Positions 42,905 to 59,614 of a stretch of 64,000 nt of DNA are shown one piece after another. Source of the DNA: a virus; IMG/VR virus record IMGVR_UViG_3300034101_003554, positions 1-64,000 of that record. One strand, given 5' to 3'. The notes below the pieces were generated by a model, which made no database searches, had not been told where the DNA came from, and saw nothing but the letters and a program-made list of their open reading frames with translations. The first letter of the stretch is position 1, and each line of letters starts with the position of its first letter. The position numbers and the translations under genes are program-made.

Positions 42905-42933
42905 GGAACTTTAAGGGATGTGGGATGGTTATA
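42905..42933 (+). promoter_or_regulatory. ECF-sigma-like promoter
   Basis: GGAACT-N16-GGTTATA. Confidence 0.6.
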
Positions 42934-42963
42934 ATAATGTAACACACTTAAAAAAATAATAAA

Positions 42964-43125: not shown

Positions 43126-43141
43126 AAAACTTGATAAAACA

Positions 43142-43173
43142 TTTGGAAATAAGAATAAAGGATTGTAATTTTG
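43142..43173 (+). promoter_or_regulatory. Bacteroidota-type promoter
   Basis: TTTG-N20-TAATTTTG. Confidence 0.7.
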
Positions 43174-43250
43174 TGGGAGAGTAAGGAAAGGTCGTAGGTA
43201 GCACTGTCCACAACCAGCCTTAAACGTGGTGGATACTTACTCTAAATTAT

Positions 43251-43326
43251 GGTGATGTTGCCAAGTTGGTCAAGGCGAACGACTGAAAATCGTTTTATAC
43301 CAGTTCGAATCTGGTCATCACCACCA
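43251..43326 (+). tRNA. tRNA-Phe(GAA)
   Basis: Cloverleaf, encoded CCA. Confidence 0.92.
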
Positions 43327-43337
43327 AACAATTATAT

Positions 43338-43412
43338 GTGGTATGTACCCCAACTGGTAGAGGGGCATCATTGTGGATGATGTATGTGTGGGTTCAAATC
43401 CCATCATACCAC
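43338..43412 (+). tRNA. tRNA-His(GTG)
   Basis: G-1:C73 pair; catca-tt GTG ga-tgatg. Confidence 0.92.
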
Positions 43413-43422
43413 CAAACAAATT

Positions 43423-43509
43423 GGAAAGTTAAGCTCGGCGGCCCGAGTCTACGTCTTGAAAACGATAGGTACAATTGTATTGTATGGGGATCGACACCTC
43501 AACTTTCCG
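43423..43509 (+). tRNA. tRNA-Ser(TGA)
   Basis: Long variable arm, G73; irregular D and T loops. Confidence 0.8.
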
Positions 43510-43519
43510 CAACAAATTT

Positions 43520-43592
43520 AGTCCCATAGTTCAATGGATTAGAACCGAACAATACGAATGTTCAAATACCTGTTCGAATCGGGTTGGGACTA
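43520..43592 (+). tRNA. tRNA-Arg(ACG)
   Basis: gaaca-at ACG aa-tgttc. Confidence 0.88.
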
Positions 43593-43601
43593 CAAACAAT
43601 T

Positions 43602-43688
43602 GGAGGATAAAGTAATCAGGGTCGTTACCACCGCCTGCTAAGCGAGTGGCACCAAGTATGGTGTGGGGTTCGTGTCCTCTGTCCTCCG
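43602..43688 (+). tRNA. tRNA-Ser(GCT)
   Basis: Long variable arm, G73. Confidence 0.82.
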
Positions 43689-43801
43689 CAGAAAAATATT
43701 AATAAGATTAGAGCAGTTGAGTTCATAACTCAAAGGAATGCAGACAGTGGAGATGAGCGACCCACCTAATCATATTAAATGAAGAAAAATATTCCAAAGT
43801 G

Positions 43802-43833
43802 TTTGGAAATTAGAAAATGAAATCGTAATTTTG
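43802..43833 (+). promoter_or_regulatory. Bacteroidota-type promoter
   Basis: TTTG-N20-TAATTTTG. Confidence 0.7.
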
Positions 43834-43842
43834 TGATACAAT

Positions 43843-43972
43843 AGTCCTGTGGCGAAAGTTAAGGGTAGAGTGAAGATTGAATGTTCAGACACTCCTTAAT
43901 ACTAGGATTGGAGCGAAAGGTCTAACATAAACAATATGTAGCTTAATACAAGTTCGAATCTTGTCAGGACTA
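43843..43972 (+). ncRNA. tRNA-shell RNA 1 (130 nt)
   Basis: agtcctg/caggact-A acceptor stem plus T-arm; unrelated interior. Confidence 0.75.
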
Positions 43973-43994
43973 CTAAAAATTAAAAACTAAAATT

Positions 43995-44171
43995 ATGGAC
44001 ACACATTATTGGGTAAGATTTGAGATTAGAATTGAAACTATCAACAATAGTTTAAACGCTGATGAACAAAAAGAAATCTTTGACTATATAAAATCAAGAA
44101 TTGACGGTAGAGATGACATAGATAGACCTAAAAAGTTGGATTGTTGTTTTGTCAATATGAGAAAATTTTAG
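43995..44171 (+). CDS. Small hypothetical protein (58 aa)
   Basis: MDTHYWVRFE..., A-rich start. Confidence 0.6.
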   Translation: MDTHYWVRFEIRIETINNSLNADEQKEIFDYIKSRIDGRDDIDRPKKLDCCFVNMRKF

Positions 44172-44184
44172 ATAAGTTAAATAT

Positions 44185-44295
44185 AGTCCTATGGCGGAAT
44201 TGGTAGACGCACTCCCCCTAGATAGGGAGAATATTGTTTCGACGCAATTAACCAGGTGATGGCATCTAATACAGGTTCGAATCCTGTCAGGACTA
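44185..44295 (+). ncRNA. tRNA-shell RNA 2 (111 nt)
   Basis: Leu-like D-arm, 8-nt anticodon-position loop, about 40-nt extra region. Confidence 0.75.
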
Positions 44296-44320
44296 CAAAA
44301 ATAAAAATAAAATTAGGAAT

Positions 44321-44554
44321 ATGAAAAAGTCACTTGAAGAAGTAAAGAAATTGAATACGAAAAATCTTCTACGTTTTTATAGAGCAGAACGTATAAGATT
44401 TTATGGTAGTGGATACTGGTGTAGTTGTGGGTGTGGTGAAATGATATGGGAAGCAAGAACATCACAAGCAGATATGGAACAAAAATATAATGAACATAAA
44501 GATTTTTTGAATGTAATTAAAGCAGAACTCAATACAAGAGAACATATTTCTTAA
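44321..44554 (+). CDS. Small hypothetical protein with CxCxC
   Basis: 77 aa. Confidence 0.7.
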   Translation: MKKSLEEVKKLNTKNLLRFYRAERIRFYGSGYWCSCGCGEMIWEARTSQADMEQKYNEHKDFLNVIKAELNTREHIS

Positions 44555-44575
44555 AATTGTTTGCGAAACTTTTAA

Positions 44576-44696
44576 AGTCTTGTGGCGGAAGTGATAGACG
44601 CTATTGTAAAAGGGTTCACATCCCAAAGATGAGCAAGTGTAATTGCTACATAGATAATGTCATATTATCATACAGGTTCGAATCCTGTCAGGACTA
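44576..44696 (+). ncRNA. tRNA-shell RNA 3 (121 nt)
   Basis: agtcttg...acaggttcgaatcctgtcaggacta. Confidence 0.75.
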
Positions 44697-44721
44697 TTTT
44701 TTAACTTTAAAACAAATTATT

Positions 44722-44976
44722 ATGAAATCTTTACAAGAACTTTACGCAAACACACCAATTCAAGTGATTGTTGATTTCTATATTCAAAATAACACAGAAG
44801 TATGCCTACTCGAAGGTAAAATTCATAACGGTGACTTGTCTGCAATTGAAGAATTAGAAACCCTTGTTGCCAAAATCCTAAATTATGAGATTGAGAATTT
44901 TGAAGGTAAAGAGTGTTTTGAATCAGCATACCTGAAAAGAATGAAAATGTTGGTTAGAACTAAACAAATTCTTTAA
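44722..44976 (+). CDS. Hypothetical protein (start moved to MKSLQE)
   Basis: Upstream part of the ORF is the tRNA-shell. Confidence 0.7.
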   Translation: MKSLQELYANTPIQVIVDFYIQNNTEVCLLEGKIHNGDLSAIEELETLVAKILNYEIENFEGKECFESAYLKRMKMLVRTKQIL

Positions 44977-44992
44977 AAAAAAATTAAAACTT

Positions 44993-45204
44993 AGTCCTGT
45001 GGCGGAATTGGTAGACGCACATTAGCTGAGTGATGCAATAAGCAAGTACCCCTAATTAAAAGCCTAACGGATTTTACCCACTAGAACAATAAAAATCCTC
45101 AGATTGGGTTTAGGGTCTTACCAAACTCTCCGAAAACAGAGTAGGAGCTGTTAATAACCAAGATGGTAAGTGTTTATTTACAGGTTCGAATCCTGTCAGG
45201 ACTA
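44993..45204 (+). ncRNA. tRNA-shell RNA 4 (212 nt)
   Basis: Perfect shell with about 160-nt insert. Confidence 0.75.
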
Positions 45205-45218
45205 CAAAAAATTAAAAA

Positions 45219-45368
45219 ATGTTAGTAATTATTGGTCTTTTATTTTTGATAATTGGAATCTTATTCTTAATTTTGTCTTACAAAACAAAGAACTCAGACT
45301 TGTTTATAGTTGGAATTATATTTCTAATTGTTCTTTTGTTTGGATTTATATATGGTTTAATAATATAG
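45219..45368 (+). CDS. Small two-helix membrane protein (49 aa)
   Basis: MLVIIGLLFLIIG...; read manually. Confidence 0.5.
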   Translation: MLVIIGLLFLIIGILFLILSYKTKNSDLFIVGIIFLIVLLFGFIYGLII

Positions 45369-45436
45369 GTGTAGCTCAGAGGTAGAGTGCTAGTTTTGGG
45401 AACTAGTGGTCGCTGGTTCAATCCCAGTCACCTATA
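45365..45436 (+). tRNA. tRNA-Pro(TGG)
   Basis: ctagt-tt TGG ga-actag. Confidence 0.9.
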
Positions 45437-45449
45437 CAAGATTTTTAAA

Positions 45450-45523
45450 GGTTCTATAGCTCAATTGGTTAGAGCACCCGACTCATAATCGGTAGGTTCT
45501 AGGTTCAAGTCCTAGTGGAACCA
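45450..45523 (+). tRNA. tRNA-CAT, probably Ile2 (lysidine type)
   Basis: CAT anticodon; body resembles Ile2 tRNAs; adjacent to Ile(GAT); identity inferred. Confidence 0.8.
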
Positions 45524-45538
45524 CAACAATTTTAACAA

Positions 45539-45613
45539 TGTCCTGTAACTCAGTTGGTTTAGAGTATTCGTCTGATACGCGAAAAGTCGTGAGTTCGAGC
45601 CTCACCAGGACAA
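45539..45613 (+). tRNA. tRNA-Ile(GAT)
   Basis: ttcgt-ct GAT ac-gcgaa. Confidence 0.9.
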
Positions 45614-45621
45614 CAACAAAT

Positions 45622-45694
45622 GTCTCAGTAGCTCAGTGGTAGTAGCCCTTGACTGTTAATCAAGTTGTCGTAGGTTCGAATCCTACCTGGGACG
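45622..45694 (+). tRNA. tRNA-Asn(GTT)
   Basis: cttga-ct GTT aa-tcaag. Confidence 0.92.
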
Positions 45695-45710
45695 CAAATT
45701 TTAATAAATT

Positions 45711-45938
45711 ATGGTTAATGTAAAAATTGGTGAATTTAAGGTTGGTGATAAGTTGTTTATTGATTATAGTGAAAATAATCCAAACAATAAACACATCGAA
45801 ATTAGAGCAATTGTGGATATGGAAGTGGTGATTTATTTGGATGAAAAAAATAACTACCATATGGAACCAATTCATTACTTCAATGTGTTATGTAGATGTA
45901 ACTCACTTAAAAAAATAACAAATGAAACGGACAATTAG
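45711..45938 (+). CDS. Hypothetical protein
   Basis: 75 aa. Confidence 0.65.
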   Translation: MVNVKIGEFKVGDKLFIDYSENNPNNKHIEIRAIVDMEVVIYLDEKNNYHMEPIHYFNVLCRCNSLKKITNETDN

Positions 45939-46077
45939 AAAACCAAGTTCATCCAAGTTTTATGAAATGCTTAGAAATAAGTACAACAACCACATTAAGA
46001 AACAAGAAAATGAAATGGAAGATTCTACAAATTAGATTCCAACCTAAAAAATTTAATTAACAATATATAATTTTCAT

Positions 46078-46587
46078 ATGAAAAAAGAGTTTTTATTTAA
46101 TGATAACATTATTGATTTTGAATTTGACGAAGTAATAGATAAAAAAATAAATGTTAAGGTATTTCACTATTTCAGTAATAATCTTTTATTTGAAAAAATT
46201 GAAGATAGAATAATTTGTCTTAAAGGTATTGGTAAATTATTCTTTCAAGAAGGATTCCCAATTTCATTATCTATTTCAGTATTAAAAGAACAAGGGGTTG
46301 AGGTTAGTATATTACACGTTGCTGATGAATGTTTAAAAAATGGGTGGTCACCAATAACAACATATAATAAATTAAAATCTGACTTTGAAGAAGATATTGA
46401 CAAAGAAAATCATTATGATTTACATTTATTAAAAAAATTTTGTGAATCAAATTATGAAGACCAAAGAGAAATGATATTTGAATATCTGTTTAAATGCAAA
46501 ACTGATGATGTCAGAAATAAAAAAAATGAAAATCCAATAGACTGGTTACAATTACTTGTAACTAGTGGGGCTAAAAATAAACTTTAA
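46078..46587 (+). CDS. Hypothetical protein with an AlaRS-like GFP helix motif
   Basis: KLFFQEGFPISLSISVLKEQGVEV. Confidence 0.65.
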   Translation: MKKEFLFNDNIIDFEFDEVIDKKINVKVFHYFSNNLLFEKIEDRIICLKGIGKLFFQEGFPISLSISVLKEQGVEVSILHVADECLKNGWSPITTYNKLKSDFEEDIDKENHYDLHLLKKFCESNYEDQREMIFEYLFKCKTDDVRNKKNENPIDWLQLLVTSGAKNKL

Positions 46588-46596
46588 CAAGAAAAT

Positions 46597-46671
46597 GACC
46601 CTGTAGCTTAGCTGGTTTAAAGCACAATACTTTTAATATTGGGAGCGGGAGTTCAAATCTCCCCAGGGTCA
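46597..46671 (+). tRNA. tRNA-Lys(TTT)
   Basis: caata-ct TTT aa-tattg. Confidence 0.9.
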
Positions 46672-46868
46672 CAACACAATAAGTTACGAAAGGTGTTATT
46701 AGAAAATAGTAGACATATTTTTTGACATTATGGGTCTGAAAATAAAAATTAAGGATGGTACGAAAGTTCAGGACTTTGACTGTAAACTAGGAAAGGTAAC
46801 TAAGATACGCGGTCTCGGTTCTATTGGAGTACAATTATCAGTATAGCCCAATCATTCTTTTATAAATA

Positions 46869-46953
46869 GTCCTTATGGTGTAATGGTTAAACATCCCACT
46901 CTTACAAAGTGGAGACGAGAAGTATAATCCTAGTTCGAATCTAGGTAAGGACA
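46869..46953 (+). tRNA. tRNA-Val(TAC) with expanded variable region
   Basis: ccact-ct TAC aa-agtgg; 16-nt variable region. Confidence 0.82.
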
Positions 46954-46982
46954 CATTAAATAATTTTTAAATTACAAAAACG

Positions 46983-47231
46983 ATGAAAAAAATATTATTC
47001 CTTGGATTAATTTCTGTATTATTCCTTAGTTGTCAAAGAGAAGGTATAGAAGAACTAAAAACAGATAATGCGAATTATAACGTTGAGCTTCTATTTAAAG
47101 TTGATGGATGTAAGGTCTATCGATTTTGGGATAAAGGATACAAGTATTTTACAACTTGTGATGGATCCGTGACTCATAAACTAAGTGGAAAACACCCCAA
47201 AGATTTGGGAATACAGACAATCGTGAAATAA
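46983..47231 (+). CDS. Lipoprotein (DUF4884-like)
   Basis: Lipobox FLSC; VELLFKVDGCKVYRF. Confidence 0.75.
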   Translation: MKKILFLGLISVLFLSCQREGIEELKTDNANYNVELLFKVDGCKVYRFWDKGYKYFTTCDGSVTHKLSGKHPKDLGIQTIVK

Positions 47232-47467
47232 AGATTTGAACAATTAAGGGACCGAGCCTGCCTACAATTTCGGTGTGAGGTGCTAGTAGGTAATTGTTCT
47301 TTATGTTATAATAGTACCACGAGGCATCCCATAAGAACTGCTCACTACTGTGGTCTTGTTGCTTGTAAACGAATAGCCCAAGGTATAAGTTATGAAGCTT
47401 AACTCAACCTATCCCCCACTGACGAGTGGGGTGAAGTTGGGGGATTTCATATATTTATAGTAAAAAA

Positions 47468-47926
47468 ATGATGAAAGATTTAAGAATACGTATTAAAACA
47501 ATTTTAAAAGAAGAATTTGAAAATTATACTATAGTATATCGTGGTATTGGAGATAGAATTAACGCTACCTATGGTAAAGTATCTGATGATGGAATGGGTG
47601 TATTTTGGACAGATAATTTAACTATGGCCAAATGGTTTGCTGGACTTATTGATTATTCTGTTGATACTTATAGATATGAAAATATAAAAGGTTCTAAGGG
47701 TAAGATTTTAACTAAAGAAATAAAATTTGAAAATCCATATGTTGTTAATTCAGATGATGAAGATTATGACTCATTTCAAGTTTATATGGATGAAATATAC
47801 AAATTCGGTGGGGTTGACAAATATAAAGAAATGTTAATTGAAAAAAATTATGATGGTATCATATTAAGAAATTGTTCAACAAATTACTATGAAAATGGAA
47901 CTTATGATATCTTTATTGAGTTATAG
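47468..47926 (+). CDS. ADP-ribosyltransferase-like protein with LKE leader
   Basis: VYRG ... GVFWTDN..MAKWFA ... YDGIIL. Confidence 0.55.
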   Translation: MMKDLRIRIKTILKEEFENYTIVYRGIGDRINATYGKVSDDGMGVFWTDNLTMAKWFAGLIDYSVDTYRYENIKGSKGKILTKEIKFENPYVVNSDDEDYDSFQVYMDEIYKFGGVDKYKEMLIEKNYDGIILRNCSTNYYENGTYDIFIEL

Positions 47927-47948
47927 GTAATATAAAAAGAAACAATAG

Positions 47949-48033
47949 GGTTGGGTGGCCGAGTTGGTTAAGGCACTAGTCTGCAAAACTATCGAATGAA
48001 AATTCATCGTGGGTTCGAATCCCTCCCCAACCT
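47949..48033 (+). tRNA. tRNA-Cys(GCA) with long variable arm
   Basis: U73; atgaa/ttcat extra stem. Confidence 0.85.
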
Positions 48034-48042
48034 CAAACAAAT

Positions 48043-48115
48043 GTAGATGTAGCTCAATTGGTAGAGTTGCTGATTCCAAACCAGCCGGTTGGGGGTTCGA
48101 GTCCCTCCATCTATG
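48043..48115 (+). tRNA. tRNA-Trp(CCA)
   Basis: gctga-tt CCA aa-ccagc. Confidence 0.9.
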
Positions 48116-48146
48116 CAAATTTTATCAACAATTAAAACTATTTATT

Positions 48147-49105: not shown

Positions 49106-49489
49106 ATGTTTTTATATAAAGTAGAAGTTAAAATAGCAACTAATCCTGAAATGGACTTAGGTTTATTCACAAAAGAATTTATCCCAAAAGGAACTATAGT
49201 TTGGGAATTCGTGGAAGGTGTGGATATTAAAATGGATGAAACGACATTCAATAAATTGAACGAAGCTCAAAAAGAATTTTTTGAAAAATATGGGTGGAAG
49301 GAAGATGATGGGTTTTATTATTCCTCTTGTGACTTAACTAACTTTATTAATCATAGTTACAATCCAAATTTAGATGTTGTGGGGGAAATAATAATTTCAA
49401 ATAAAGATATCCAAATTGGGGAAGAATTATTTGAAGATTATAGTCAATTTGATACTGAGTTTCATACTTATAAAAATGAATTTATTTAA
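49106..49489 (+). CDS. SET-domain protein (lysine methyltransferase-like)
   Basis: GLFTKEFIPKGT, NFINHSYNPN, GEELFEDY. Confidence 0.85.
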   Translation: MFLYKVEVKIATNPEMDLGLFTKEFIPKGTIVWEFVEGVDIKMDETTFNKLNEAQKEFFEKYGWKEDDGFYYSSCDLTNFINHSYNPNLDVVGEIIISNKDIQIGEELFEDYSQFDTEFHTYKNEFI

Positions 49490-50617: not shown

Positions 50618-51106
50618 ATGAAACTTAATGAAGAAATAAAACGAATAAAAGGTTTAATGTTGGAAAACTCCGACCCTTTCACTATTTCAACAGCGGGTAG
50701 TATTAATATAACACCTGGTCTTCACATATCTATTAATAATGGTGAAGTTAAGATGGGTCATATTAATATGATTGATTTTGATAATGGAAAACATTATGAT
50801 TACTACCTACCAAGACTTTTGTATAATGTTAATGAATATTGTAAATCAAATTGTACTGAAAATTTATTCAATAATAATAACTCAATATATCTACACGATT
50901 TAGAAATTTTTAAACCTTACAGAGGTAAAGGTCTAAGTAATCGTCTAATGGACGAATGTCATAAATTAGGAAAAAATATGGGAGTTGACTACATTATTCT
51001 AATAACTGAATGTAATAATTATGTAGCCCAAAACTTATATAAAAAATATGGGTACGAAATTTATAGTTCAGATGGTATTGAAGACTTATTTTACAAAAAA
51101 ATTTAA
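50618..51106 (+). CDS. GNAT acetyltransferase with LNEE leader
   Basis: YRGKGLSNRLM ... NYVAQNLYKKYGY. Confidence 0.85.
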   Translation: MKLNEEIKRIKGLMLENSDPFTISTAGSINITPGLHISINNGEVKMGHINMIDFDNGKHYDYYLPRLLYNVNEYCKSNCTENLFNNNNSIYLHDLEIFKPYRGKGLSNRLMDECHKLGKNMGVDYIILITECNNYVAQNLYKKYGYEIYSSDGIEDLFYKKI

Positions 51107-51201
51107 AATAAAGACTCAACAACTTGATTAATTTTTGTAACAAACTTGACCTTTTGTATTATATCGTTATATTTAATAAAAAAATAGTAAAAACTTCACA
51201 A

Positions 51202-51273
51202 ATGAAACACAATCTCTATATGGACTTAACAACTAGAGCTGAGGGTAGAAATCCTCGGATGGAGATGGTATGA
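51202..51273 (+). CDS. Leader peptide of tRNA cluster 2 (MKHNLYMDLTTRAEGRNPRMEMV)
   Basis: Codons 5-16 all match cluster-2 amino acids; followed by a terminator. Confidence 0.8.
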   Translation: MKHNLYMDLTTRAEGRNPRMEMV

Positions 51274-51300
51274 TATAAGGTTTTAATTGTTAATAAAATC

Positions 51301-51339
51301 AAATCCATCTTCCTAAAAAAAAGATGGATTTTTTTTTTT
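51301..51339 (+). terminator. Attenuator terminator of tRNA cluster 2
   Basis: aaatccatctt/aagatggattt plus long T-tract; alternative pairing with ggagatgg at 51261-51268. Confidence 0.85.
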
Positions 51340-51346
51340 GAGAGTG

Positions 51347-51378
51347 TTTGAAAATGTGAATTAGTAATTGTATCTTTG
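51347..51378 (+). promoter_or_regulatory. Bacteroidota-type promoter followed by boxA-like TGTTCATTGAAA
   Basis: TTTG-N20-TATCTTTG. Confidence 0.7.
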
Positions 51379-51410
51379 TGATGTTCATTGAAATTGAGGG
51401 AAAAATATTT

Positions 51411-51485
51411 GGTACCATAGTTTAACGGCAAGAATATAAGGTTGTCACTCTTATGGTAGGGGTTCGATTCCCCTTGGTACCGCCA
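51411..51485 (+). tRNA. tRNA-Asp(GTC)
   Basis: Cloverleaf, G73, CCA. Confidence 0.9.
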
Positions 51486-51504
51486 AAAAAAAGTTTTAAA
51501 AGTT

Positions 51505-51534
51505 GGAACTAAATGAGATGAAGGTTGGTTTATA
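51505..51534 (+). promoter_or_regulatory. ECF-sigma-like promoter
   Basis: GGAACT-N16-GGTTTATA. Confidence 0.6.
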
Positions 51535-51559
51535 ATAATGTAACTTAAAAAAATAGATT

Positions 51560-51706
51560 ATGACAAACTTTATGATAAACTTTATTATTCTTGCTATTTT
51601 TATAATGCTTTTGGGTTTTATTGGTAACTATATCATAAAAAAATATCCAGATTCTTGGGTAGCAAAATGGTGGGATGATATGACTGATATTGGTCATTGG
51701 TGGTAA
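51560..51706 (+). CDS. Small membrane protein (48 aa)
   Basis: Read manually, after the ECF-like promoter. Confidence 0.55.
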   Translation: MTNFMINFIILAIFIMLLGFIGNYIIKKYPDSWVAKWWDDMTDIGHWW

Positions 51707-51890
51707 ATTAAAATAATATCTATGTCACGAGATTAAGATGTGACTTACGTTCTAAGGAGTTTACTTATTGTCAATTAGGGCGGACGAAGGCAACATAAGT
51801 TATATTATGGTGACTTGATATTCACCATAACGAATACAAGATATCAAAAAGAGAAGTGGAGAGTTCTTATTCAAAACTTCTCTTTATTTT

Positions 51891-52173
51891 GCCTAGGTGG
51901 TGTAATGGTAGCCACGCAAGACTTAAAAATTTGAGTGCTATTGGTGAAAACCTTTAAGTAGAACTCCGTAAATTCGGTGAAGCCTTTAAAATGGTAATAC
52001 CGAGCCAAGTTCAAGAAATTGAAAAGGTGTAGAGACTAGACACGGAGAACCTAAGTCGAAAGATATGGTTAAGGTATAGTCCAGACCACAAACTGAAAAG
52101 GTGGTGAAAACCATAGTGGTAAGAAAATCTTGTGACCAGTAAGGTCGTGCGGGTTCGAGTCCCGCCCTGGGTA
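51891..52173 (+). tRNA. tRNA-Leu(TAA) interrupted by a group I intron; exons 51891-51924 and 52124-52173
   Basis: Spliced arm caaga-ct TAA aa-tcttg; long variable arm. Confidence 0.9.
51925..52123 (+). mobile_element. Group I intron (trnL-UAA type), 199 nt, no ORF
   Basis: P1 with U.G pair; P AAATTCGGTGAA, Q AATACCGAGCC, R GTGTAGAGACTAGAC, S AAGGTATAGTCC; terminal G. Confidence 0.9.
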
Positions 52174-52195
52174 CAAAAAAAAAGTTTAAAAAAGA

Positions 52196-52227
52196 TTTGG
52201 AATTAAGAAAATCAAATCGTAATTTTG
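52196..52227 (+). promoter_or_regulatory. Bacteroidota-type promoter (duplicated at 52371-52402)
   Basis: TTTG-N20-TAATTTTG inside an approximately 58-bp direct repeat. Confidence 0.7.
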
Positions 52228-52236
52228 TGAGACAAT

Positions 52237-52348
52237 AGTCAGGTGGCGAAATGGTAGACGCACATCCGCAGGTGATTTAGTTTGAGGATACAGCGGCAGT
52301 CGAGGTCACAAACATATACAAATATAGGTTCGAATCCTATCCTGACTA
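52237..52348 (+). ncRNA. tRNA-shell RNA 5 (112 nt)
   Basis: agtcagg/cctgact-A, Leu-like D-arm, T-arm. Confidence 0.75.
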
Positions 52349-52417
52349 CAAAAAAAAAGTTTAAAAAAGATTTGGAATTAAGAAAATGAAATCGTAATTT
52401 TGTGACACAATAAAAAC

Positions 52418-52490
52418 GCACCATTCGACAAGGGGTATAAGTCACCTCCCTTTCACGGAGGAGTCACGGGTTCGAATCCCGTATGGTGTA
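52418..52490 (+). tRNA. tRNA-Glu(TTC)
   Basis: cctcc-ct TTC ac-ggagg. Confidence 0.92.
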
Positions 52491-52542
52491 CAAATCTCAG
52501 AAGTAATTAATCTGGGGCTGAGAGGTTCGAAACTCACGGAAA

Positions 52543-52642
52543 TGATTATGGTGTAGGCGCACGGAAAGATAAAGTATGAGAATGGTAAGTACCCATTAAA
52601 GAAATTGACATCAGGATTAAGGTTCGAATCCTTATTAATCAA
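52543..52642 (+). ncRNA. Degenerate tRNA-shell-like element
   Basis: tgatta/taatca stem plus taagg-ttcgaat-cctta T-arm. Confidence 0.35.
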
Positions 52643-52651
52643 CAAACATTA

Positions 52652-52723
52652 TGCAAGGAAGGGCAACGGTCGTCCGCTAGGCTCATAACCTAGAAGCTGT
52701 GGGTTCGATTCCCACCCTTGCGT
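52652..52723 (+). tRNA. tRNA-Met(CAT), possibly initiator-like
   Basis: ctagg-ct CAT aa-cctag; non-Watson-Crick 1:72 pair. Confidence 0.8.
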
Positions 52724-52732
52724 CAAACAAAT

Positions 52733-52807
52733 TGCAAGATGGACTGGAGGTGGTTCCAGCTCGGTCTCATAAGCCGTACCATGTGGGTTCGACTCCCACT
52801 CTTGCAA
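52733..52807 (+). tRNA. tRNA-Met(CAT)
   Basis: cggt-ct CAT aa-gccg. Confidence 0.82.
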
Positions 52808-53079
52808 CTAAACAACTTAACTAATGGCGGTAACTGATTAGTAAAATAATCGAACTAAAGCAATCTAATGGAAGTTGAGTAGCGTCTAATATAGTAGTTT
52901 TATAATACTTGCACTACAAATGGGTATTAAATTAACAGGTTGGGAATCTGACTACATAATATTAGTGTTAGGTGGACTTAAATAAGTGAACACCTGTGTA
53001 ACGGGTTGAAAACTTTACGATTGAAATGTCGACCATTTGGGTTAAGTTCTATTTGTAGTAGAACTTGTAAGTTGTAAAA

Positions 53080-53165
53080 GGGTGTCTATCCAAATTGGTG
53101 AAGGAAGCTGTCTGTAAAACAGTTGCCACGTGCTAAACTTGGGGGTTCGAATCCCTCGGCACCCA
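53080..53165 (+). tRNA. tRNA-Tyr(GTA)
   Basis: gctgt-ct GTA aa-acagt, long variable region. Confidence 0.88.
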
Positions 53166-53377
53166 CAAAAGAAATGAAACCTTACATAGGATGGATTAGC
53201 ACCATTGAAAGAGAACTTGGCTCTCATAGGATCGCAACCTAAATCGAGAGTAATAATGACCCAAGTTGTTATGTAGGAGACCCTGCTCTACTGTGCACGG
53301 TATCAGGCTATGGGGAACAAACCATCGTAAAACTCTTGCCCATATAATACTTATGGAAGGACTTTCATTTCTAATTT

Positions 53378-53452
53378 GCAGTAATAGCTCAATGGTAGAG
53401 TTCTTGTCTTCCAAACAAGATGTTGCGAGTTCGAGTCTCGCTTACTGCTCCA
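53378..53452 (+). tRNA. tRNA-Gly(TCC)
   Basis: U73, CCA. Confidence 0.92.
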
Positions 53453-53468
53453 AATTTAAAAATTCATT

Positions 53469-53681
53469 ATGAATCAGTCTGAATTTAGAAATCTTAGAAC
53501 TGGGGATAAAATCCATATTAAGTCTCGTGATGGTTTATATACCTTCTTAACAAAAGACTTTATAACTGGTGAAATTCATATAACTTGTAAAAGATGGAAA
53601 TATGAAGATTCCCCAATCAGAGTAACAAGTTTTGATGATTTCAAATGTTTGGCTGGTGGATTATGGAGAAAAATTATGTAA
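53469..53681 (+). CDS. Hypothetical protein
   Basis: 70 aa. Confidence 0.65.
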   Translation: MNQSEFRNLRTGDKIHIKSRDGLYTFLTKDFITGEIHITCKRWKYEDSPIRVTSFDDFKCLAGGLWRKIM

Positions 53682-53754
53682 TAGGAGAAAGTAAGTCGGT
53701 TGGTGTATAGCTTCCTTACGTCTAAAATTTAAGCACAATTACATAATACAAAAA

Positions 53755-53831
53755 GGGGGATTAGCTCATTCAGCAAGAGCACTTGTTTTGCACACAAGAG
53801 GTGGTCGGAGCAAAGCCGACATCCTCCACCA
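53755..53831 (+). tRNA. tRNA-Ala(TGC)
   Basis: G3.U70 pair, CCA; atypical T-loop. Confidence 0.9.
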
Positions 53832-53860
53832 AAAAATAAACGTTGTTTTAAATTTAATTT

Positions 53861-54466
53861 ATGAAAAAATTTTTAGTATTTTTAGTATTATTTGTATTAT
53901 TGACATCTTGGTCATATACACCCCCACGTAGGGTATTATATATCGGTGATAGTTTAACCTGTGCTCCTGGTGGGTGGCAGGATCAAGTTTCAAAACATTT
54001 TGGATATCAAAGTCTCAATCTAGCAAAAGGTGGTGTTAGAACGGATTATATGAGAACGACAATGAATGCTTGTTTTAAAAAAGATTCAGCTTTCTCTCAG
54101 GTATTCATTTATGGTGGATGTAACGATGCTTTTTCTATGGTAGATTTACAAGGGGCGGTGAATAACATTCAGATGATGGTTGATAGTTGTAATAGAAGAG
54201 GAATTGAACCTATTGTAATTGTGGGTTTTAATCCAGCTCAAGTAACAACAAAGACTGTGTATGACGCAGAAACAACCAAGAGATGTGTTGGAAGATACAT
54301 TGAGTTTCAAAAACTAATGGTTAAAGAAAAAACTGGATTAAAGAATTGTAAAATAATTCCTATGGACACTACAATGTTTTATAGTGATACTTGGGATGGA
54401 ATTCACTTCGCACCTTCTGGACATAAGAAATTTTCTACTTGGGTTATAAATAATATGGAAAAATGA
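53861..54466 (+). CDS. Secreted SGNH/GDSL hydrolase
   Basis: Signal peptide; IGDSLT, GGCND, DGIH; resembles the SGNH domain of 32355..33932. Confidence 0.88.
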   Translation: MKKFLVFLVLFVLLTSWSYTPPRRVLYIGDSLTCAPGGWQDQVSKHFGYQSLNLAKGGVRTDYMRTTMNACFKKDSAFSQVFIYGGCNDAFSMVDLQGAVNNIQMMVDSCNRRGIEPIVIVGFNPAQVTTKTVYDAETTKRCVGRYIEFQKLMVKEKTGLKNCKIIPMDTTMFYSDTWDGIHFAPSGHKKFSTWVINNMEK

Positions 54467-54714
54467 AAAAAATATTTTGGTTTTCAACTTTAATCACTAT
54501 CTTTGTATCCTGTTACAAACACCCCACAATAGAACCTGGTGATATTGTTAAGAAGTGTGTGATTGATACGATGTATATTACAGAATCTCCATCTACAATT
54601 GAATTTGGTAAAAGATATAATTATAAAACCGATTGTGATGAATTGATAATGACAAGAAGAAGTGATGTATATAAAATAGGGGATACAATAACCTATGTTT
54701 ATAAAAGAAGATAA
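54463..54714 (+). CDS. Putative lipoprotein
   Basis: Lipobox FVSC. Confidence 0.7.
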   Translation: MKKIFWFSTLITIFVSCYKHPTIEPGDIVKKCVIDTMYITESPSTIEFGKRYNYKTDCDELIMTRRSDVYKIGDTITYVYKRR

Positions 54715-54720
54715 TTATTT

Positions 54721-54806
54721 GCCGTTTTCGCATAGTGGTTGATTGCACTGGATTTGTAACCCAGTTCCGTTAGGACACGTCAGTTCGAATCTGACAAACG
54801 GCTCCA
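54721..54806 (+). tRNA. tRNA-Thr(TGT) with long variable arm
   Basis: TGT anticodon; tcc-gtta-gga extra stem; CCA. Confidence 0.88.
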
Positions 54807-55142
54807 AAAATCCCAATTGATGTAGATAGATTGGGTGGTCTGCAAGCCTCAATTGCCGTATTTGGTTAATATGTTAACCTAACCACGTATTATGGTTAAT
54901 ATGTCACTATAACTAGGGGTCGCCAAGACCAGATTGTTGGCAGTTTACACGAGATAGTCACTCGCATTTTCTACAAAAGGCAAAAAACACTAGTCCGTTT
55001 CTACTGGATGAGGGGGTATTGAAAAAGTGTAGCTAACTTGGAAGATACCCCAAAATTTTTTAAAAAAAAACATAGGAAAAAGTGAATAATTCAGGAAGAA
55101 CAACTATCTTTGTCTTATTAATCACTGAAACACATAATCACA

Positions 55143-55373
55143 ATGGCTAAAGAGAAAAAAACAATCCAAGTTGAGTTATTAAAAGAATTCGCAAACAACT
55201 ATTTGGCTATTCCAATGGTTTCTATCCAAGAAAAAATGGGCATTATCACAATGATTGAAAAGGTTCTACATGAATCCAATGCTTATAAAGGCTATATGTA
55301 TTTGAAACTTGAAGAAAACAATACCCCACCAGCATTTGAAACTGAGGGGTGGGTAACAAGAAAATATTTTTAG
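55143..55373 (+). CDS. Hypothetical protein
   Basis: 76 aa after a TATCTTTG box. Confidence 0.7.
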   Translation: MAKEKKTIQVELLKEFANNYLAIPMVSIQEKMGIITMIEKVLHESNAYKGYMYLKLEENNTPPAFETEGWVTRKYF

Positions 55374-55488
55374 TGGTTGTGACACCTAATAATTCACAAG
55401 TAGTGGTTGACACTTAGAATGTTACCTGACTTTAAGGTTTGGAATAGAAAAACCGAAAACTTTTAAAACTTTTAAAACTTTGAATATT

Positions 55489-55752
55489 ATGGCACTTATT
55501 TATGTAATCTTGGATAGCAACGATAGAATTCCTATTCTAACTGCAAGTAGTATTGAAAAAGCTGAATTACTTTTGAATCAATATATGGGTGTTGAAGGTC
55601 CTATATTTGATGAAAGTGTTGAGTATATAGGTTTTGAACCATTTGATGACAGAGGTTATTACACAATTTATGAAGGCGAATACAAATATAAGACAGAAGA
55701 TGGTGAACAAAGATTCATGAGATATTGTATGGGATTAGATAGTTTAGATTAA
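55489..55752 (+). CDS. Hypothetical protein
   Basis: ATG start MALIY. Confidence 0.7.
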   Translation: MALIYVILDSNDRIPILTASSIEKAELLLNQYMGVEGPIFDESVEYIGFEPFDDRGYYTIYEGEYKYKTEDGEQRFMRYCMGLDSLD

Positions 55753-55822
55753 AAATTATGGTAAAGATTGTAATTTTGTGAACTATTTTTTATTCTAAAT
55801 ATTTATTATTAAAAATAAAACT

Positions 55823-56272
55823 ATGAGTAAAGAAATGAGGAAATTTATAGACGCATTCAAAAAATTCAATTTGAATGAAAGTGTTACTAATGTATATAAA
55901 CGAGATGATGATGATGATGATTCACCTATTATAATTGAAGGTGAAATAGAATATGATGATGATGTATTTTATTACAAAGTCGAGTATCACGATGATTTCG
56001 GATATAAAGTATTTGAAGTAACATCAGAAGAAAATGAAGATGTTGAAGATTTTTTTGATGATGATGAATATGAAGAATTATTAGGTTTAATAATTGATGA
56101 TGTAAAATCAGAAAGATATAAAGAAAAAGAAATATCCACTAAGTGGGTTGCTATTGATACCAGAAATGGTAGAGTAATACACAGAAGTAAAAATCATATT
56201 GATAGAAAATTTGTTGCTGAATTGTATGATATACCAAAATCTTTTATAGAAATTAAAATAGAGACAAGGTAA
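55823..56272 (+). CDS. Acidic protein with LNE leader
   Basis: MSKEMRKFIDAFKKFNLNES. Confidence 0.8.
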   Translation: MSKEMRKFIDAFKKFNLNESVTNVYKRDDDDDDSPIIIEGEIEYDDDVFYYKVEYHDDFGYKVFEVTSEENEDVEDFFDDDEYEELLGLIIDDVKSERYKEKEISTKWVAIDTRNGRVIHRSKNHIDRKFVAELYDIPKSFIEIKIETR

Positions 56273-56310
56273 AAATTATTACACATAACATAAATATATA
56301 TGTAACTTTT

Positions 56311-56452
56311 AGTCCTATGGCGGAAGTAGACGCTGTGGTGCAAATCCACTTAGCCCAAAGGGGGTTACAATATAGAGGTTCAATTCCTCTACTGGCACGG
56401 ATGTGTCAGATTGGCGTTGTTGTAAATACAGGTTCGAATCCTGTCAGGACTA
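56311..56452 (+). ncRNA. tRNA-shell RNA 6 (142 nt)
   Basis: Shell with two extra T-loop-like hairpins inside. Confidence 0.75.
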
Positions 56453-56487
56453 CAAAATAAATTTTTTAACAAACTTAAATTTTAATT

Positions 56488-56655
56488 ATGAGTGATTTAG
56501 AAACAAAACTTCAAATTTTACAAGAGCAATTAAAACTCAACAATGAAAAACTTGAACATATGAGAGATGAAATAAAGTTTAGTAAAACTTTTATTTATTT
56601 TGATTTAGCATTGTTGGGATTAATTTTGTTATACGTAATTTTGTTTGTAATTTAA
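56488..56655 (+). CDS. Small coiled-coil plus transmembrane protein (55 aa)
   Basis: Read manually. Confidence 0.6.
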   Translation: MSDLETKLQILQEQLKLNNEKLEHMRDEIKFSKTFIYFDLALLGLILLYVILFVI

Positions 56656-56665
56656 AGTGGAATTT

Positions 56666-56737
56666 AGTCCTGTAGCCAAATTGGTAAAGGCCTCATGTAT
56701 GGATGAGAGAGTATGGGTTCGAATCCTGTCGGGACTA
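56666..56737 (+). ncRNA. tRNA-shell RNA 7 (72 nt, 6-nt anticodon-position loop)
   Basis: agtcctg/cgggact-A; ctcat-gtatgg-atgag. Confidence 0.7.
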
Positions 56738-56759
56738 TTAAAAAATAATTCTAACCTTT

Positions 56760-56789
56760 GGAACTAAATGATAGGTAAAAAGGTTTATA
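56760..56789 (+). promoter_or_regulatory. ECF-sigma-like promoter
   Basis: GGAACT-N16-GGTTTATA. Confidence 0.6.
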
Positions 56790-56831
56790 GTTATGTAAGT
56801 TGAATATTAACACACAAAAAAATTAAAAATT

Positions 56832-57002
56832 ATGAATATAGAAGATGTAAAAAAATTAATTAAGGAAAACCTTAAAATTAGTGTAGAAACTCTCACTAGA
56901 GGTAGTGAATGTTCGTATAATGAAAAAACATATGTTAAATTAATTTTTCTTGATGAAGTTATTTCAGAAACAGAAATTGAAAAACTTAGTGAAGATAGAT
57001 AA
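56832..57002 (+). CDS. Small hypothetical protein (56 aa)
   Basis: Read manually. Confidence 0.6.
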   Translation: MNIEDVKKLIKENLKISVETLTRGSECSYNEKTYVKLIFLDEVISETEIEKLSEDR

Positions 57003-57042
57003 TAATTTTATGTTTTATAACATAAATATATATGTAACTTTT

Positions 57043-57187
57043 AGTCCTATGGCGGAAGTAGACGCTGTGAGAGTATGTGTATGGCTCTGTTAGGTTCGTG
57101 TAACGCTATTAACGGGAATTAGTAGATGATTTCAAAGATAAAAGCACATACAAAATCTACGTATAGGTTCAAATCCTATTAGGACTA
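57043..57187 (+). ncRNA. tRNA-shell RNA 8 (145 nt)
   Basis: agtccta/taggact-A; upstream and 5' end identical to shell 6. Confidence 0.75.
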
Positions 57188-57289
57188 CAACATTTAAAAC
57201 ATCAACTCGTAAAGAAAATGATGGCAAAGAGGTTCAGATTAAAGGTAACGGGCTCCTACCTACCCTGAACAAGATGTTTTAATTAATAT

Positions 57290-57403
57290 GGTCAAGTGGC
57301 GGAATGGAAGACGCTAAGTAAGATGGTGTACGTTTGTCCCATAAGAAAGACCGATGCAACAGAAATGTGAAGGGTCGTATAGGTTCAAATCCTATCTTGA
57401 CTA
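57290..57403 (+). ncRNA. tRNA-shell RNA 9 (114 nt)
   Basis: ggtcaag/cttgact-A, Leu-like D-arm, T-arm. Confidence 0.75.
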
Positions 57404-57415
57404 CAATATATATTA

Positions 57416-57488
57416 GCACCCATAGCTCAACTGGAAGAGCAATTGCCTTCTAAGCAATAGGTTACAGGTTCGAATCCTGTTGGGTGTA
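57416..57488 (+). tRNA. tRNA-Arg(TCT)
   Basis: attgc-ct TCT aa-gcaat. Confidence 0.92.
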
Positions 57489-57595
57489 CTAAATTTTAAA
57501 GAAGTACAAGAGTTCTATTTCTATGTAAATTGATAACTTAAAATCTAACGGCTTTCAAAAACGCAGAATATAGTTTATTAAAATTCCGACCTTCA

Positions 57596-57931
57596 GTGGT
57601 ATTGGATGAACAAGTAAATGTTGGTATTTTAATCTTTCTTAAAGAAGATTCAAAACTACAATTCATCTATCCAAATTCATTGACACGATTAACATATCTT
57701 TTTCCAAATATTGATTTAAATTGTATTAAAGAAAAATTGGAGAATTTTAAAAGTCGTGTTAATCAATTCAACACAGATGGATTAACAAATTTTGAGTCCA
57801 TTAGAGACGAACATTTGCTTATATTGGATGATAATAGTTTTTTCTTCAGTAATACAATTAATACCAAATACACCAATAGTGATGGTATTCTAAAACATTA
57901 CACTGAAAAATATTTTTTATCTTACAAATAA
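57596..57931 (+). CDS. DUF3037-like protein, start uncertain
   Basis: In-frame YSLLKFRPSVVLDEQVNVGIL begins upstream of the GTG with no ATG. Confidence 0.5.
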   Translation: MVLDEQVNVGILIFLKEDSKLQFIYPNSLTRLTYLFPNIDLNCIKEKLENFKSRVNQFNTDGLTNFESIRDEHLLILDDNSFFFSNTINTKYTNSDGILKHYTEKYFLSYK

Positions 57932-57957
57932 ATCATTATATTATTTAAAAAAAAATT

Positions 57958-58143
57958 ATGAAATTTAAAGTAGGAGACAAAGTTTACAAACCAAAAGGTT
58001 ACAAATTCCCAGGTATAGTTGTTGCGGTATTCCAAACCACATCTGGTGAAACAAGAATTGTTGCAGAATTAATTGACAATGGTATGTTGCACATATTTAG
58101 TGAGAGTCAGCTAGAACTTGATAATGATGAAAAAAATGATTAA
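57958..58143 (+). CDS. Small SH3-like barrel protein
   Basis: FKVGDKVYKPKGYKFPGIVV...LHIFSESQL. Confidence 0.7.
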   Translation: MKFKVGDKVYKPKGYKFPGIVVAVFQTTSGETRIVAELIDNGMLHIFSESQLELDNDEKND

Positions 58144-58144
58144 T

Positions 58145-58384
58145 ATGAAAAACACACCTCTCCAAAATGTTATAGACAGAGTTGAAAAACTTGCTAGAGA
58201 AGCTAAAGAAAATACAGAGGAAAAAAGAAAATTAAACATAGTTATTTCTTATCTTTGGGATGAGTTACAAAATGAAAGATATGTAATGTCTGAAATTTAT
58301 GAAAAAAGTAAAAAAGAAGATAATGAAGTAACTGGAAAAATGTGGATTGAAAAAAATTTTATAGACTATCAAAAATTTTTATAA
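58145..58384 (+). CDS. Hypothetical protein
   Basis: ATG start MKNTP. Confidence 0.65.
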   Translation: MKNTPLQNVIDRVEKLAREAKENTEEKRKLNIVISYLWDELQNERYVMSEIYEKSKKEDNEVTGKMWIEKNFIDYQKFL

Positions 58385-58621
58385 TGAAAAACAAAAATCA
58401 AGGTAAAACAAATGACCAAAGAGAATTTGCAATGTATATGTTTTCAACAGCAATGCTTGGACTTATTGTATTGGGATTGGTTTATCTAATCAAATTTGGA
58501 TTTAACCTTTAAAAAAAACATACATAGAGAAAACTGGTATGTATGTTGTAAAGTAAAATCTTACTTACCTCCGACTATTTTGATAGTCATACGGAAGTTC
58601 CCAGATAAAAGATTTATTTAT

Positions 58622-58704
58622 GCCTGAGTGGCGGAATTGGCAAACGCAATTGATTTAGGATCAATCGTTATAATGACTTGTGGGTTCGAGTCCCACCTTG
58701 GGTA
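58622..58704 (+). tRNA. tRNA-Leu(TAG)
   Basis: attga-tt TAG ga-tcaat, long variable arm. Confidence 0.9.
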
Positions 58705-58727
58705 CTAACATTTTAAAAAAAGAAATT

Positions 58728-59038: not shown

Positions 59039-59215
59039 ATGAAAACCAAGAATAAACTTAAAGTTACAATTGATGCCATTGGTAATGGTGCTAGATTGGT
59101 GTATTTGGAGAATAACCCACATGGGTTTGTATCAGTAACTAAGGTACACAAAAGTTCAAAACAATATTCACGTAAAAACAAGAGTAAAAATGAAATACAA
59201 AATATATTTGGATGA
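59039..59215 (+). CDS. Small basic protein
   Basis: KVHKSSKQYSRKNK basic tail. Confidence 0.65.
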   Translation: MKTKNKLKVTIDAIGNGARLVYLENNPHGFVSVTKVHKSSKQYSRKNKSKNEIQNIFG

Positions 59216-59612
59216 TGAAAGAACTCCTAATGACAAAGATTGGATTGTTGTTAGAAATTATGGTCAATTCATCAAAAAGATTTCTGAGTTAGGATTAGAG
59301 AATATCGATGTTATTTCATTTGACCACGATTTGGGTGACACTGCGGTTGAAGAGTATTACACAAATGTAATGAATAAAGGTATATTAGATTATGATAACA
59401 TTGAAGAAAAAACTGGATATGATGCAGTTAAATGGTTGGTTGGACAATATATGGACAACTTTACAAGTCCTTTCCCTCAAGTATATGTTCACTCAGCCAA
59501 TCCTATTGGAGCTGCTAATATTGTTAATTATGTTAATCGTTTCCTAAGATATATGGATAAGGAACAAACCGCAAAATTAAGAGTAGAACCCTTCACCATT
59601 CAACATAAATAA
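59190..59612 (+). CDS. Cyclic-phosphate-processing receiver-like domain protein
   Basis: IYLDDER, ISFDHDLG, TGYD, VHSANP. Confidence 0.8.
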   Translation: MKYKIYLDDERTPNDKDWIVVRNYGQFIKKISELGLENIDVISFDHDLGDTAVEEYYTNVMNKGILDYDNIEEKTGYDAVKWLVGQYMDNFTSPFPQVYVHSANPIGAANIVNYVNRFLRYMDKEQTAKLRVEPFTIQHK

Positions 59613-59614
59613 AA

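Follow-up and report, generated by a model that had tools for sequence, protein, structure and literature searches.

The second of two tRNA gene clusters on a phage-like genome was found to be preceded by a short open reading frame (ORF) in which codons 5-16 specify precisely those nine amino acids for which the cluster has tRNAs, and this match between leader and cluster is far beyond chance. From its layout, we consider it likely that this unit, leader 2, is a ribosome-mediated (leader-peptide) transcription attenuator that reports the decoding of codons served by the cluster-2 tRNAs. The source is a single contig of 141,041 bp with a G+C content of 29%, which carries genes for Hsp70, a DUF2828/DUF7788 protein, and an RNA ligase, among others, and of which the first 64 kb constitute the window analyzed here. 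The tRNA genes of the whole genome are confined to two co-oriented blocks, clusters 1 and 2 (Table 1), and the leaders that stand before them, leaders 1 and 2, are the only free-standing units of a short ORF plus terminator in the genome.

Table 1. Leaders, promoter-like sites, RNA elements, and tRNA genes (positions in the window unless a locus is given)
Feature	Position	Strand	Description
Leader 1 unit	42596-42755	+	ORF 42596-42691, 31 codons; run 42605-42658; region 2 at 42671-42681; terminator 42720-42748 plus T run
tRNA cluster 1	42783-48116	+	Gln, Phe, His, Arg-ACG, Ser-GCT, Pro, one CAT, Ile-GAT, Asn, Lys, Val, Cys, Trp
tRNA-Ser-TGA, probable	43423-43510		Between His and Arg; ARAGORN at relaxed threshold only; missed by Rfam
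Promoter-like site P1	51146-51175	+	TTG-N19-TATATTTA, also readable as TTGACC-N16-TATATT
Untranslated stretch	51176-51201	+	A-rich, no Shine-Dalgarno motif; before the leader 2 ATG
Leader ORF 2	51202-51273	+	ATG 51202, TGA 51271-51273; 23 codons plus TGA
Region 1	51212-51219	+	Paired with 51259-51266 when the full leader is folded to minimum energy (no ribosome)
Regulatory run, codons 5-16	51214-51249	+	Nine cluster-2 amino acids, no others
Hairpin H	51239-51258	+	Internal, conserved; between run and region 2
Region 2	51257-51268	+	Pairs with region 1 or terminator 5' arm (predicted antiterminator)
Intrinsic terminator	51301-51339	+	Stem 51301-51311/51321-51331, 11 pairs, 9-nt loop; 11-T run 51329-51339
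Promoter-like site P2	51348-51378	+	TTG-N20-TATCTTTG, between terminator and tRNA-Asp
tRNA cluster 2	51411-58705	+	Asp-GTC, Leu-TAA, Glu-TTC, two CAT, Tyr-GTA, Gly-TCC, Ala-TGC, Thr-TGT, Arg-TCT, Leu-TAG
tRNA-Leu-TAA	51891-52174	+	Interrupted by group I intron (RF00028, 62 bits)
G003 leader A	L081:1728-1838		Short ORF plus terminator before block A
G003 block A			Ile, Asn, Tyr, Trp, Phe, Pro, Gln, Ser-GCT, Ile-TAT, Arg-ACG, Cys
G003 leader B	L081:11919-12020		Short ORF plus terminator before block B
G003 block B			Ser-TGA, Asp, Val, Thr, Lys, Ala, Gly, Leu-TAG
G003 leader C	L081:18611-18679		Short ORF plus terminator before block C
G003 block C			Leu-TAA, Glu, Arg-TCT, Met

The run of leader 2 reads Leu, Tyr, Met, Asp, Leu, Thr, Thr, Arg, Ala, Glu, Gly, Arg, such that each amino acid is given one or two codons only. 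For a genome-wide scan, amino-acid sets were fixed from the ARAGORN output, and all six frames of the 141,041 bp were searched for runs that contained only residues of one set and covered that set completely. Over 282,000 codon positions, a single complete set-2 run was detected, which is that of leader 2 and lies 161 nt upstream of tRNA-Asp on the correct strand. The eleven amino acids of set 1 were likewise found in exactly one complete run, that of leader 1, also on the correct strand and 124 nt upstream of tRNA-Gln. When 60 second-order Markov genomes of the same size were scanned, complete set-2 runs had a mean of 0 and a maximum of 0 (mean of 0.32 for set 1); with the position within ~250 nt upstream added, the joint expectation by chance is below about 1e-8 according to our own arithmetic from these counts. 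The two sets are disjoint and jointly comprise all 20 amino acids. An earlier note on this DNA, prepared from its letters alone, had proposed that codons 5-16 encode exactly the nine cluster-2 amino acids and none of cluster 1, that the two leader cores are complementary and span all 20 amino acids, and that coincidence is unlikely; the ARAGORN and Rfam tRNA calls, the translation, and the scan of real and simulated genomes bear out each of these points. That leader 2 is nothing but a chance ORF beside the terminator of the upstream GNAT gene (50618-51106) is scarcely credible. The ORF is indeed short, free of a Shine-Dalgarno motif, and situated in AT-rich DNA, and its codons 5-16 were picked after the fact; however, the run remained unique once the sets were fixed independently by ARAGORN and was absent from every simulated genome, the ORF is conserved, and the same rule was found in five other leader families.

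The agreement extends to the level of codons. All 12 run codons are readable by cluster-2 tRNAs, eight by standard pairing and four (CTC, ACT, GCT, and GGT) by four-box wobble in which U34 must read U or C, the latter a caveat of the earlier note that stands for 4 of the 12 codons. Apart from the ambiguous CAT anticodon, cluster-1 tRNAs read none of the 12. Both Leu boxes and the AGA-type Arg are served, as the note had claimed, by Leu-TAA, Leu-TAG, and Arg-TCT of cluster 2, with the AGA codon of the leader fitting Arg-TCT. For leader 1, 15 of the 18 run codons are readable by cluster-1 tRNAs, and all 18 are readable if the probable tRNA-Ser-TGA is accepted; the Arg codon in L008-type versions of leader 1 is CGC, which fits Arg-ACG of cluster 1.

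The cluster-2 tRNAs were called by both ARAGORN and Rfam and are interspersed with small ORFs and tRNA-like elements. The CAT tRNA of cluster 1 is probably a tRNA-Ile2; on its reverse strand it scored 52 bits with the Rfam Plastid-ycf2 model, compared with 29 and 27 bits for two other tRNAs, and we take this model to mirror plastid trnI-CAU. The tRNA-Ser-GCT gene (43602-43689) was, like the probable tRNA-Ser-TGA, missed by Rfam, and the tRNA-Val, tRNA-Cys, and tRNA-Thr genes are 86 nt each with long variable arms. ARAGORN also called Leu-CAA (43702) and Leu-CAG (45267) at a low threshold, but on their drawn structures these two were considered unreliable. DNA resembling the intron-bearing tRNA-Leu-TAA was found in several very large uncultured phage genomes and in other phages. 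The tRNA-like elements form a family of 107-112 nt (44185-44295, 52237-52348, and 57290-57403; in addition 56665-56738) with a common acceptor stem and T arm, an aberrant central part, and Rfam tRNA scores of 34-41 bits; one tRNA with a 6-nt anticodon loop was noticed alongside them. Between tRNA-Tyr and tRNA-Gly, a match to the freshwater-1 RNA motif (RF02979) was detected at 53272-53332 (58.9 bits, E-value 1.6e-11, below the gathering score of 72), so this orphan motif occurs within a tRNA cluster of a phage.

Relatives were identified through the DUF2828 protein encoded beside leader 1, which yielded 80 viral loci. Leader 2 was nearly unchanged in seven of these (L002-L007 and L018, with the stop codon TGA replaced by TAA at the same position in L005) and had diverged in L010/L012. 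Between the window and L010, nucleotide identity was 64%, the ORF retained its length of 23 codons and its stop, and all six non-synonymous changes within the run (6/6) remained in the set. These in-set replacements are chemically radical (Asp to Gly, Leu to Glu, and Arg to Leu), which argues that selection acted on the tRNAs needed and not on peptide chemistry. The earlier note had named a lack of conservation in relatives as grounds for refutation; instead, the ORF was found to be kept, in length and stop, at this identity. Leader 1 precedes tRNA-Gln in L001-L018 in three diverged versions; compared with L008, it was 62.5% identical, and 10 of the 10 changed residues (positions 2-21) remained in set 1. 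A scan with a conserved 15-mer from the end of the ORF returned 117 stretches, which were mostly chance matches and included seven true leaders (L093, L107, L154, L155, L161, L166, and like), among them one new variant; the leader 2 loci were extended by L155. The correspondence was found to be looser in some relatives: G005 has kept a full leader 1 with few cluster-1 tRNAs by ARAGORN, and G001 and L154 have kept an Ala codon in the leader with no Ala tRNA detected. In four more distant loci (L030, L034, L050, and L062), no obvious leader was found within 600 nt of the tRNA clusters, so the design is not universal. The GNAT protein encoded upstream (50618-51103) had no relatives among the viral contigs. 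When GenBank phages were searched with the DNA of 50900-52500, matches were confined to the tRNAs and the group I intron, with none over the leader, and a protein search of cultured phages with the DUF2828 protein gave relatives of <52% identity only, mainly in Vibrio phages, such that no cultured model phage emerged.

Phages in which the tRNAs are sorted otherwise provide a natural swap, in that leader composition follows the phage's own tRNA partition. The first is G003, the 226-kb contig of L023 (examined as loci L081 and L082), in which three tRNA blocks are each preceded by a leader. The longest runs drawn from the leader's own block were 15, 13, and 7 residues for leaders A, B, and C, respectively, compared with 5 or fewer for any foreign block. 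For the six-fold amino acids Arg, Leu, and Ser, the G003 leaders divide the codon boxes exactly as the tRNAs do: (i) Arg is CGT in leader A, with the ACG tRNA, and AGA in leader C, with TCT; (ii) Leu is CTT in leader B, with TAG, and TTA in leader C, with TAA; and (iii) Ser is AGC in leader A, with GCT, and TCA in leader B, with TGA. Leader C of G003 is homologous to leader 2 of the window, with promoter blocks, last codons, region 2, and terminator in common. Its run consists of Leu, Glu, and Arg only and is followed, after a gap of two residues, by more Leu, Met, and Glu codons; Leu, Glu, Arg, and Met are the four amino acids of block C. Asp, Thr, Ala, Gly, and Tyr are absent from the entire leader C ORF, and their tRNAs are located elsewhere in G003. 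In the second phage, L019, which adds a fourth partition, the block comprises tRNAs for Gln, Met, Thr, Phe, Pro, Val, and Leu, and a leader run of 11 residues covers all seven.

These comparisons bear on whether leader 2 is a small-protein gene in its own right, with a separate promoter and terminator and a peptide that has its own function, for which the resemblance to the tRNA set would be incidental or a matter of codon supply only. A promoter-like site and a terminator are indeed present, most leaders begin with Met-Lys, and leader 2 shares conserved C-terminal residues with leader C of G003. We nonetheless regard such a gene as very unlikely, as the replacements within the run are radical yet always in-set, such that conservation by chemical similarity failed as a description of the run, while composition tracks the tRNA partition of other phages down to the codon box, and region 2 of the RNA falls on the conserved C-terminal codons.

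As an attenuator, leader 2 would operate as follows. Transcription would begin at P1 (at about 51180), and the 23-codon ORF would be translated. When the run is read fast, the ribosome at the TGA would cover region 2 while the terminator is made, and RNA polymerase would stop at the T run. When any of the nine amino-acid/tRNA species is short, the ribosome would instead stall within the run and cover region 1, which would leave region 2 free to pair with the emerging 5' arm of the terminator. RNA polymerase would then continue into tRNA-Asp and the rest of cluster 2, beyond which the first plus-strand terminator is predicted at 61663, and the new phage tRNAs would restore quick reading of the leader, by which the loop would close.

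The elements needed for these steps were examined in the sequence and in predicted folds. In P1, the blocks TTGAC and TATATTTA are invariant across five diverged leader-2-type loci. A leader ORF without a Shine-Dalgarno motif is normal in this genome, because such a motif was detected in only 7 of 139 long ORFs, and all long ORFs have A-rich upstream regions in the style of Bacteroidota; together with the TTG-N19-21-TAnnTTTG promoter-like motif, the missing Shine-Dalgarno motif presumably points to a Bacteroidota-type host. The stop codon lies 3 nt past the end of region 2, which would therefore be masked by a ribosome terminating there but left exposed by one stalled in most of the run. In the fold without a ribosome, the pairing of region 1 with 51259-51266, hairpin H, and the terminator all form. 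When the 3' arm of the terminator was omitted, 51261-51268 paired with 51305-51312, with -12.6 kcal/mol for the antiterminator domain compared with -11.1 for the terminator alone. Hence both partners that the earlier note had assigned to ggagatgg (51261-51268), namely the 5' arm of the terminator and 51212-51219, were recovered in the folds. The duplex of region 2 with the terminator arm was estimated at -9.7 kcal/mol (shuffle p = 0.047). This predicted antiterminator is short (8 pairs, one G-U), and when the full terminator is present, minimum-energy folds favor the terminator over it. Across four diverged leaders, the antiterminator pairing was kept in 87.5% of cells versus 41-67% in slid registers; the changes were one-sided, with 0 double compensatory changes. 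The terminator stem (about -11 kcal/mol) displayed one compensatory U-A to C-G pair in two of four relatives. Hairpin H was predicted by RNAalifold with 8 pairs from four diverged leader-2-type sequences and shows one double change from G-C to A-U in L010; more double changes were counted in the L081 row, where the alignment register is uncertain. It is possible that hairpin H serves as a pause or timing hairpin, and its occupation of this stretch accounts for the out-of-set Asn and Pro at codons 17-18.

Several of these properties were found to recur across the leaders. The gap between stop codon and terminator was 24-30 nt in all 13 leader rows compared, and the segment that pairs best with the terminator 5' arm was located 6-33 nt before the stop in 7 of 8 leaders (individual shuffle p-values of 0.005-0.3; about 5e-4 by Fisher combination over five unrelated leader families, calculated by hand). 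When several leaders were folded without the 3' arm, the terminator 5' arm was paired with an upstream segment in, or just past, the end of the ORF. Compared with the features expected of an attenuator, leader 2 was found to have (i) a short ORF maintained in the leader (23 codons, conserved); (ii) codons that match the downstream supply (nine amino acids, 12/12 codons); (iii) an intrinsic terminator between the ORF and the target genes; and (iv) an upstream 1:2 pairing or pause hairpin (51212-51219/51259-51266; hairpin 51239-51258). A promoter-free interval between terminator and target genes was absent, as leader 2 has P2 at this place.

The earlier note had cautioned that a primary-sigma promoter sits just downstream of the terminator, and the promoter-like P2 conforms to this; a P2-like sequence is found at the same place in relatives, as judged by reading of the sequences. 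P2 after the terminator means that the attenuator is not the sole route into cluster 2. In addition, near-identical 31-nt promoter-like repeats (TTGGAA..GTAATTTTG) were detected in both clusters, at 43143, 43803, 52197, 52372, and 56614, so parts of the clusters probably have promoters of their own, and given P2 and the repeats inside cluster 2 (52197, 52372, and 56614), much of the cluster-2 expression may bypass the leader. Promoter-like repeats were also observed before some of the tRNA-like elements, e.g., those at 52237 and 56665. With P2 following the terminator, leader 2 probably contributes an inducible share of cluster-2 transcription atop a basal one, as the earlier note had suspected.

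The same observations lend some weight to an arrangement in which the ORF senses decoding and the output is other than read-through into the tRNAs, for example a change in how the leader RNA is processed or how stable it is, a small RNA that acts in trans, or altered firing of P2, with the tRNAs transcribed from P2 and the internal promoters. The recurrence of a P2-like site right after the terminator, the repeats inside cluster 2, and an ORF of about 600 nt that separates the terminator from tRNA-Asp in L002, L004, and L018 are all in keeping with it. Against this, region 2 is placed at the stop, is complementary to the 5' arm of the terminator, and has kept this potential in diverged leaders, and it would have no role if read-through were not the output. 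Moreover, in four sister families (leader 1, leaders A and B of G003, and L019), the first tRNA follows 15-75 nt after the terminator with no promoter seen, tRNA-Gln starting 27 nt after the leader 1 unit. Read-through is therefore the sole visible route in these families, which supports the attenuation mechanism for the design as a whole, and we consider a different output for leader 2 rather unlikely. Between 42000 and 59500, the only convincing plus-strand terminators were the two that follow the leaders.

If leader 2 is an attenuator, its signal may be the amount of tRNA rather than its charging. An attenuator of classical architecture could equally be read as a sensor of amino-acid starvation, i.e., of uncharged tRNA and not of tRNA amount or integrity, and the mechanism alone cannot distinguish a missing tRNA from an uncharged one. 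Still, an amino-acid shortage is not relieved by more tRNA, and bacteria reduce tRNA synthesis in starvation. Furthermore, Arg, Leu, and Ser match at the level of the codon box, which points to tRNA species rather than amino acids, and one or two codons per amino acid suit the detection of the loss of any one species. We therefore regard a starvation sensor as unlikely.

A broader proposal, which we put forward only tentatively, is that the leaders constitute an any-of-N alarm for tRNA loss within a phage-encoded, self-regulating tRNA maintenance island. Each leader would then sample every tRNA species of its own block once or twice, and the loss of any single host tRNA, e.g., to an anticodon nuclease, another tRNA-targeting defense, or host shut-off, would halt the ribosome in the leader and thereby induce the replacement tRNAs. 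With the first plus-strand terminator after 51339 at 61663, read-through from leader 2 could reach the genes for a cREC_REC protein (59190) and an HD protein (59615), and the RNA ligase gene at 62206 is located beyond this candidate terminator. Under the same proposal, the island would include the Ro60-like gene and the adjacent structured RNAs upstream of leader 1.

Ribosome-mediated attenuation is best known from enterobacterial amino-acid operons (trpL, hisL, leuL, and pheL), where multivalent leaders also occur, such as thrL for Thr and Ile and ilvL for Ile, Leu, and Val. Leader 2 resembles these in its short leader ORF (translated in the enterobacterial cases), its codons matched to the downstream supply, its predicted alternation among 1:2, 2:3, and 3:4 pairings, where region 2 lies at the stop, and its intrinsic terminator before the target. 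It differs from them in that (i) the target is tRNA genes and not biosynthetic enzymes; (ii) the run samples nine (or, in leader 1, eleven) amino acids once or twice in place of tandem repeats for one to three, and tandem codon runs of the hisL or pheL kind are absent; and (iii) the carrier is a phage without Shine-Dalgarno usage and with a promoter-like site after the terminator. The pheST attenuator, with its pheM leader, controls phenylalanyl-tRNA synthetase in Escherichia coli and is similar in that a leader peptide governs a gene of the translation apparatus that acts on a tRNA needed by the leader codons; in contrast to leader 2, it is cellular, involves one amino acid, and targets a protein enzyme and not tRNA genes. 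As in T-box riboswitches, a choice between terminator and antiterminator would report the state of specific tRNAs to translation-related targets; however, a T-box binds uncharged tRNA directly through its specifier loop, without ribosome or ORF. No Rfam family was detected over leader 2 (51176-51345, E-value up to 0.1), and identity as a T-box riboswitch (RF00230) was rejected on the same search. A long tRNA gene array in Anabaena is described as cryptic, stress-induced, and an aid to survival under translational stress (PMC8421152), and it shares with this phage a block of accessory tRNA genes. Unlike the phage clusters, that array is cellular or plasmid-borne, with no codon-matched ORF described, and the words leader, attenuat-, and terminator are absent from the main text (PMC8421152). 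A full-text literature search returned no account of leader peptides before tRNA genes.

The arrangement speaks to the question of why phages carry tRNA genes and how the expression of these genes is timed. Among other roles, phage tRNAs have been proposed to compensate for codon usage, to make up for a host pool that has been degraded, and to evade tRNA-cleaving defenses. If the attenuation mechanism holds, a leader that reads the codons of its own block would let phages regulate translational capacity by closed-loop feedback, and textbook attenuation would be extended to tRNA genes, to a multi-amino-acid logic of one codon each, and to hosts without Shine-Dalgarno usage. For annotation, a simple rule follows: which tRNAs a block contains can be predicted from the composition of the leader in front of it.

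Several further observations were made in the surroundings of the two clusters. Behind cluster 2 and in the same orientation, the interval 59190-63228 encodes a cREC_REC cyclic-phosphate-processing receiver, an HD-domain protein, and an RNA ligase (PHA02142 OB fold plus RNA_ligase), a gene set that looks like an RNA or tRNA repair module. The phage also encodes a full-length Hsp70/DnaK (27182-29038, 855 bits) and a SET-domain protein (49106-49486). Between the leader 1 terminator and tRNA-Gln, a conserved stretch of 27 nt (42756-42782) contains GTTCTTTGACA, which is kept in all variants of leader 1 and in our view resembles the boxA antitermination element of rRNA operons. Upstream of leader 1, the region between it and the DUF2828/DUF7788 (Ro60-like) gene (42405-42590) was found to contain conserved, repeated stem-loops with no match in Rfam, in which a GGATAG stem strand pairs with CTATCC and the loop begins with TTCAGCAA. 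This stem-loop motif is also present in L050 and L062 and directly before tRNA-Gln in L019, and the stem-loops may represent Y-RNA-like partners of the Ro-like protein.
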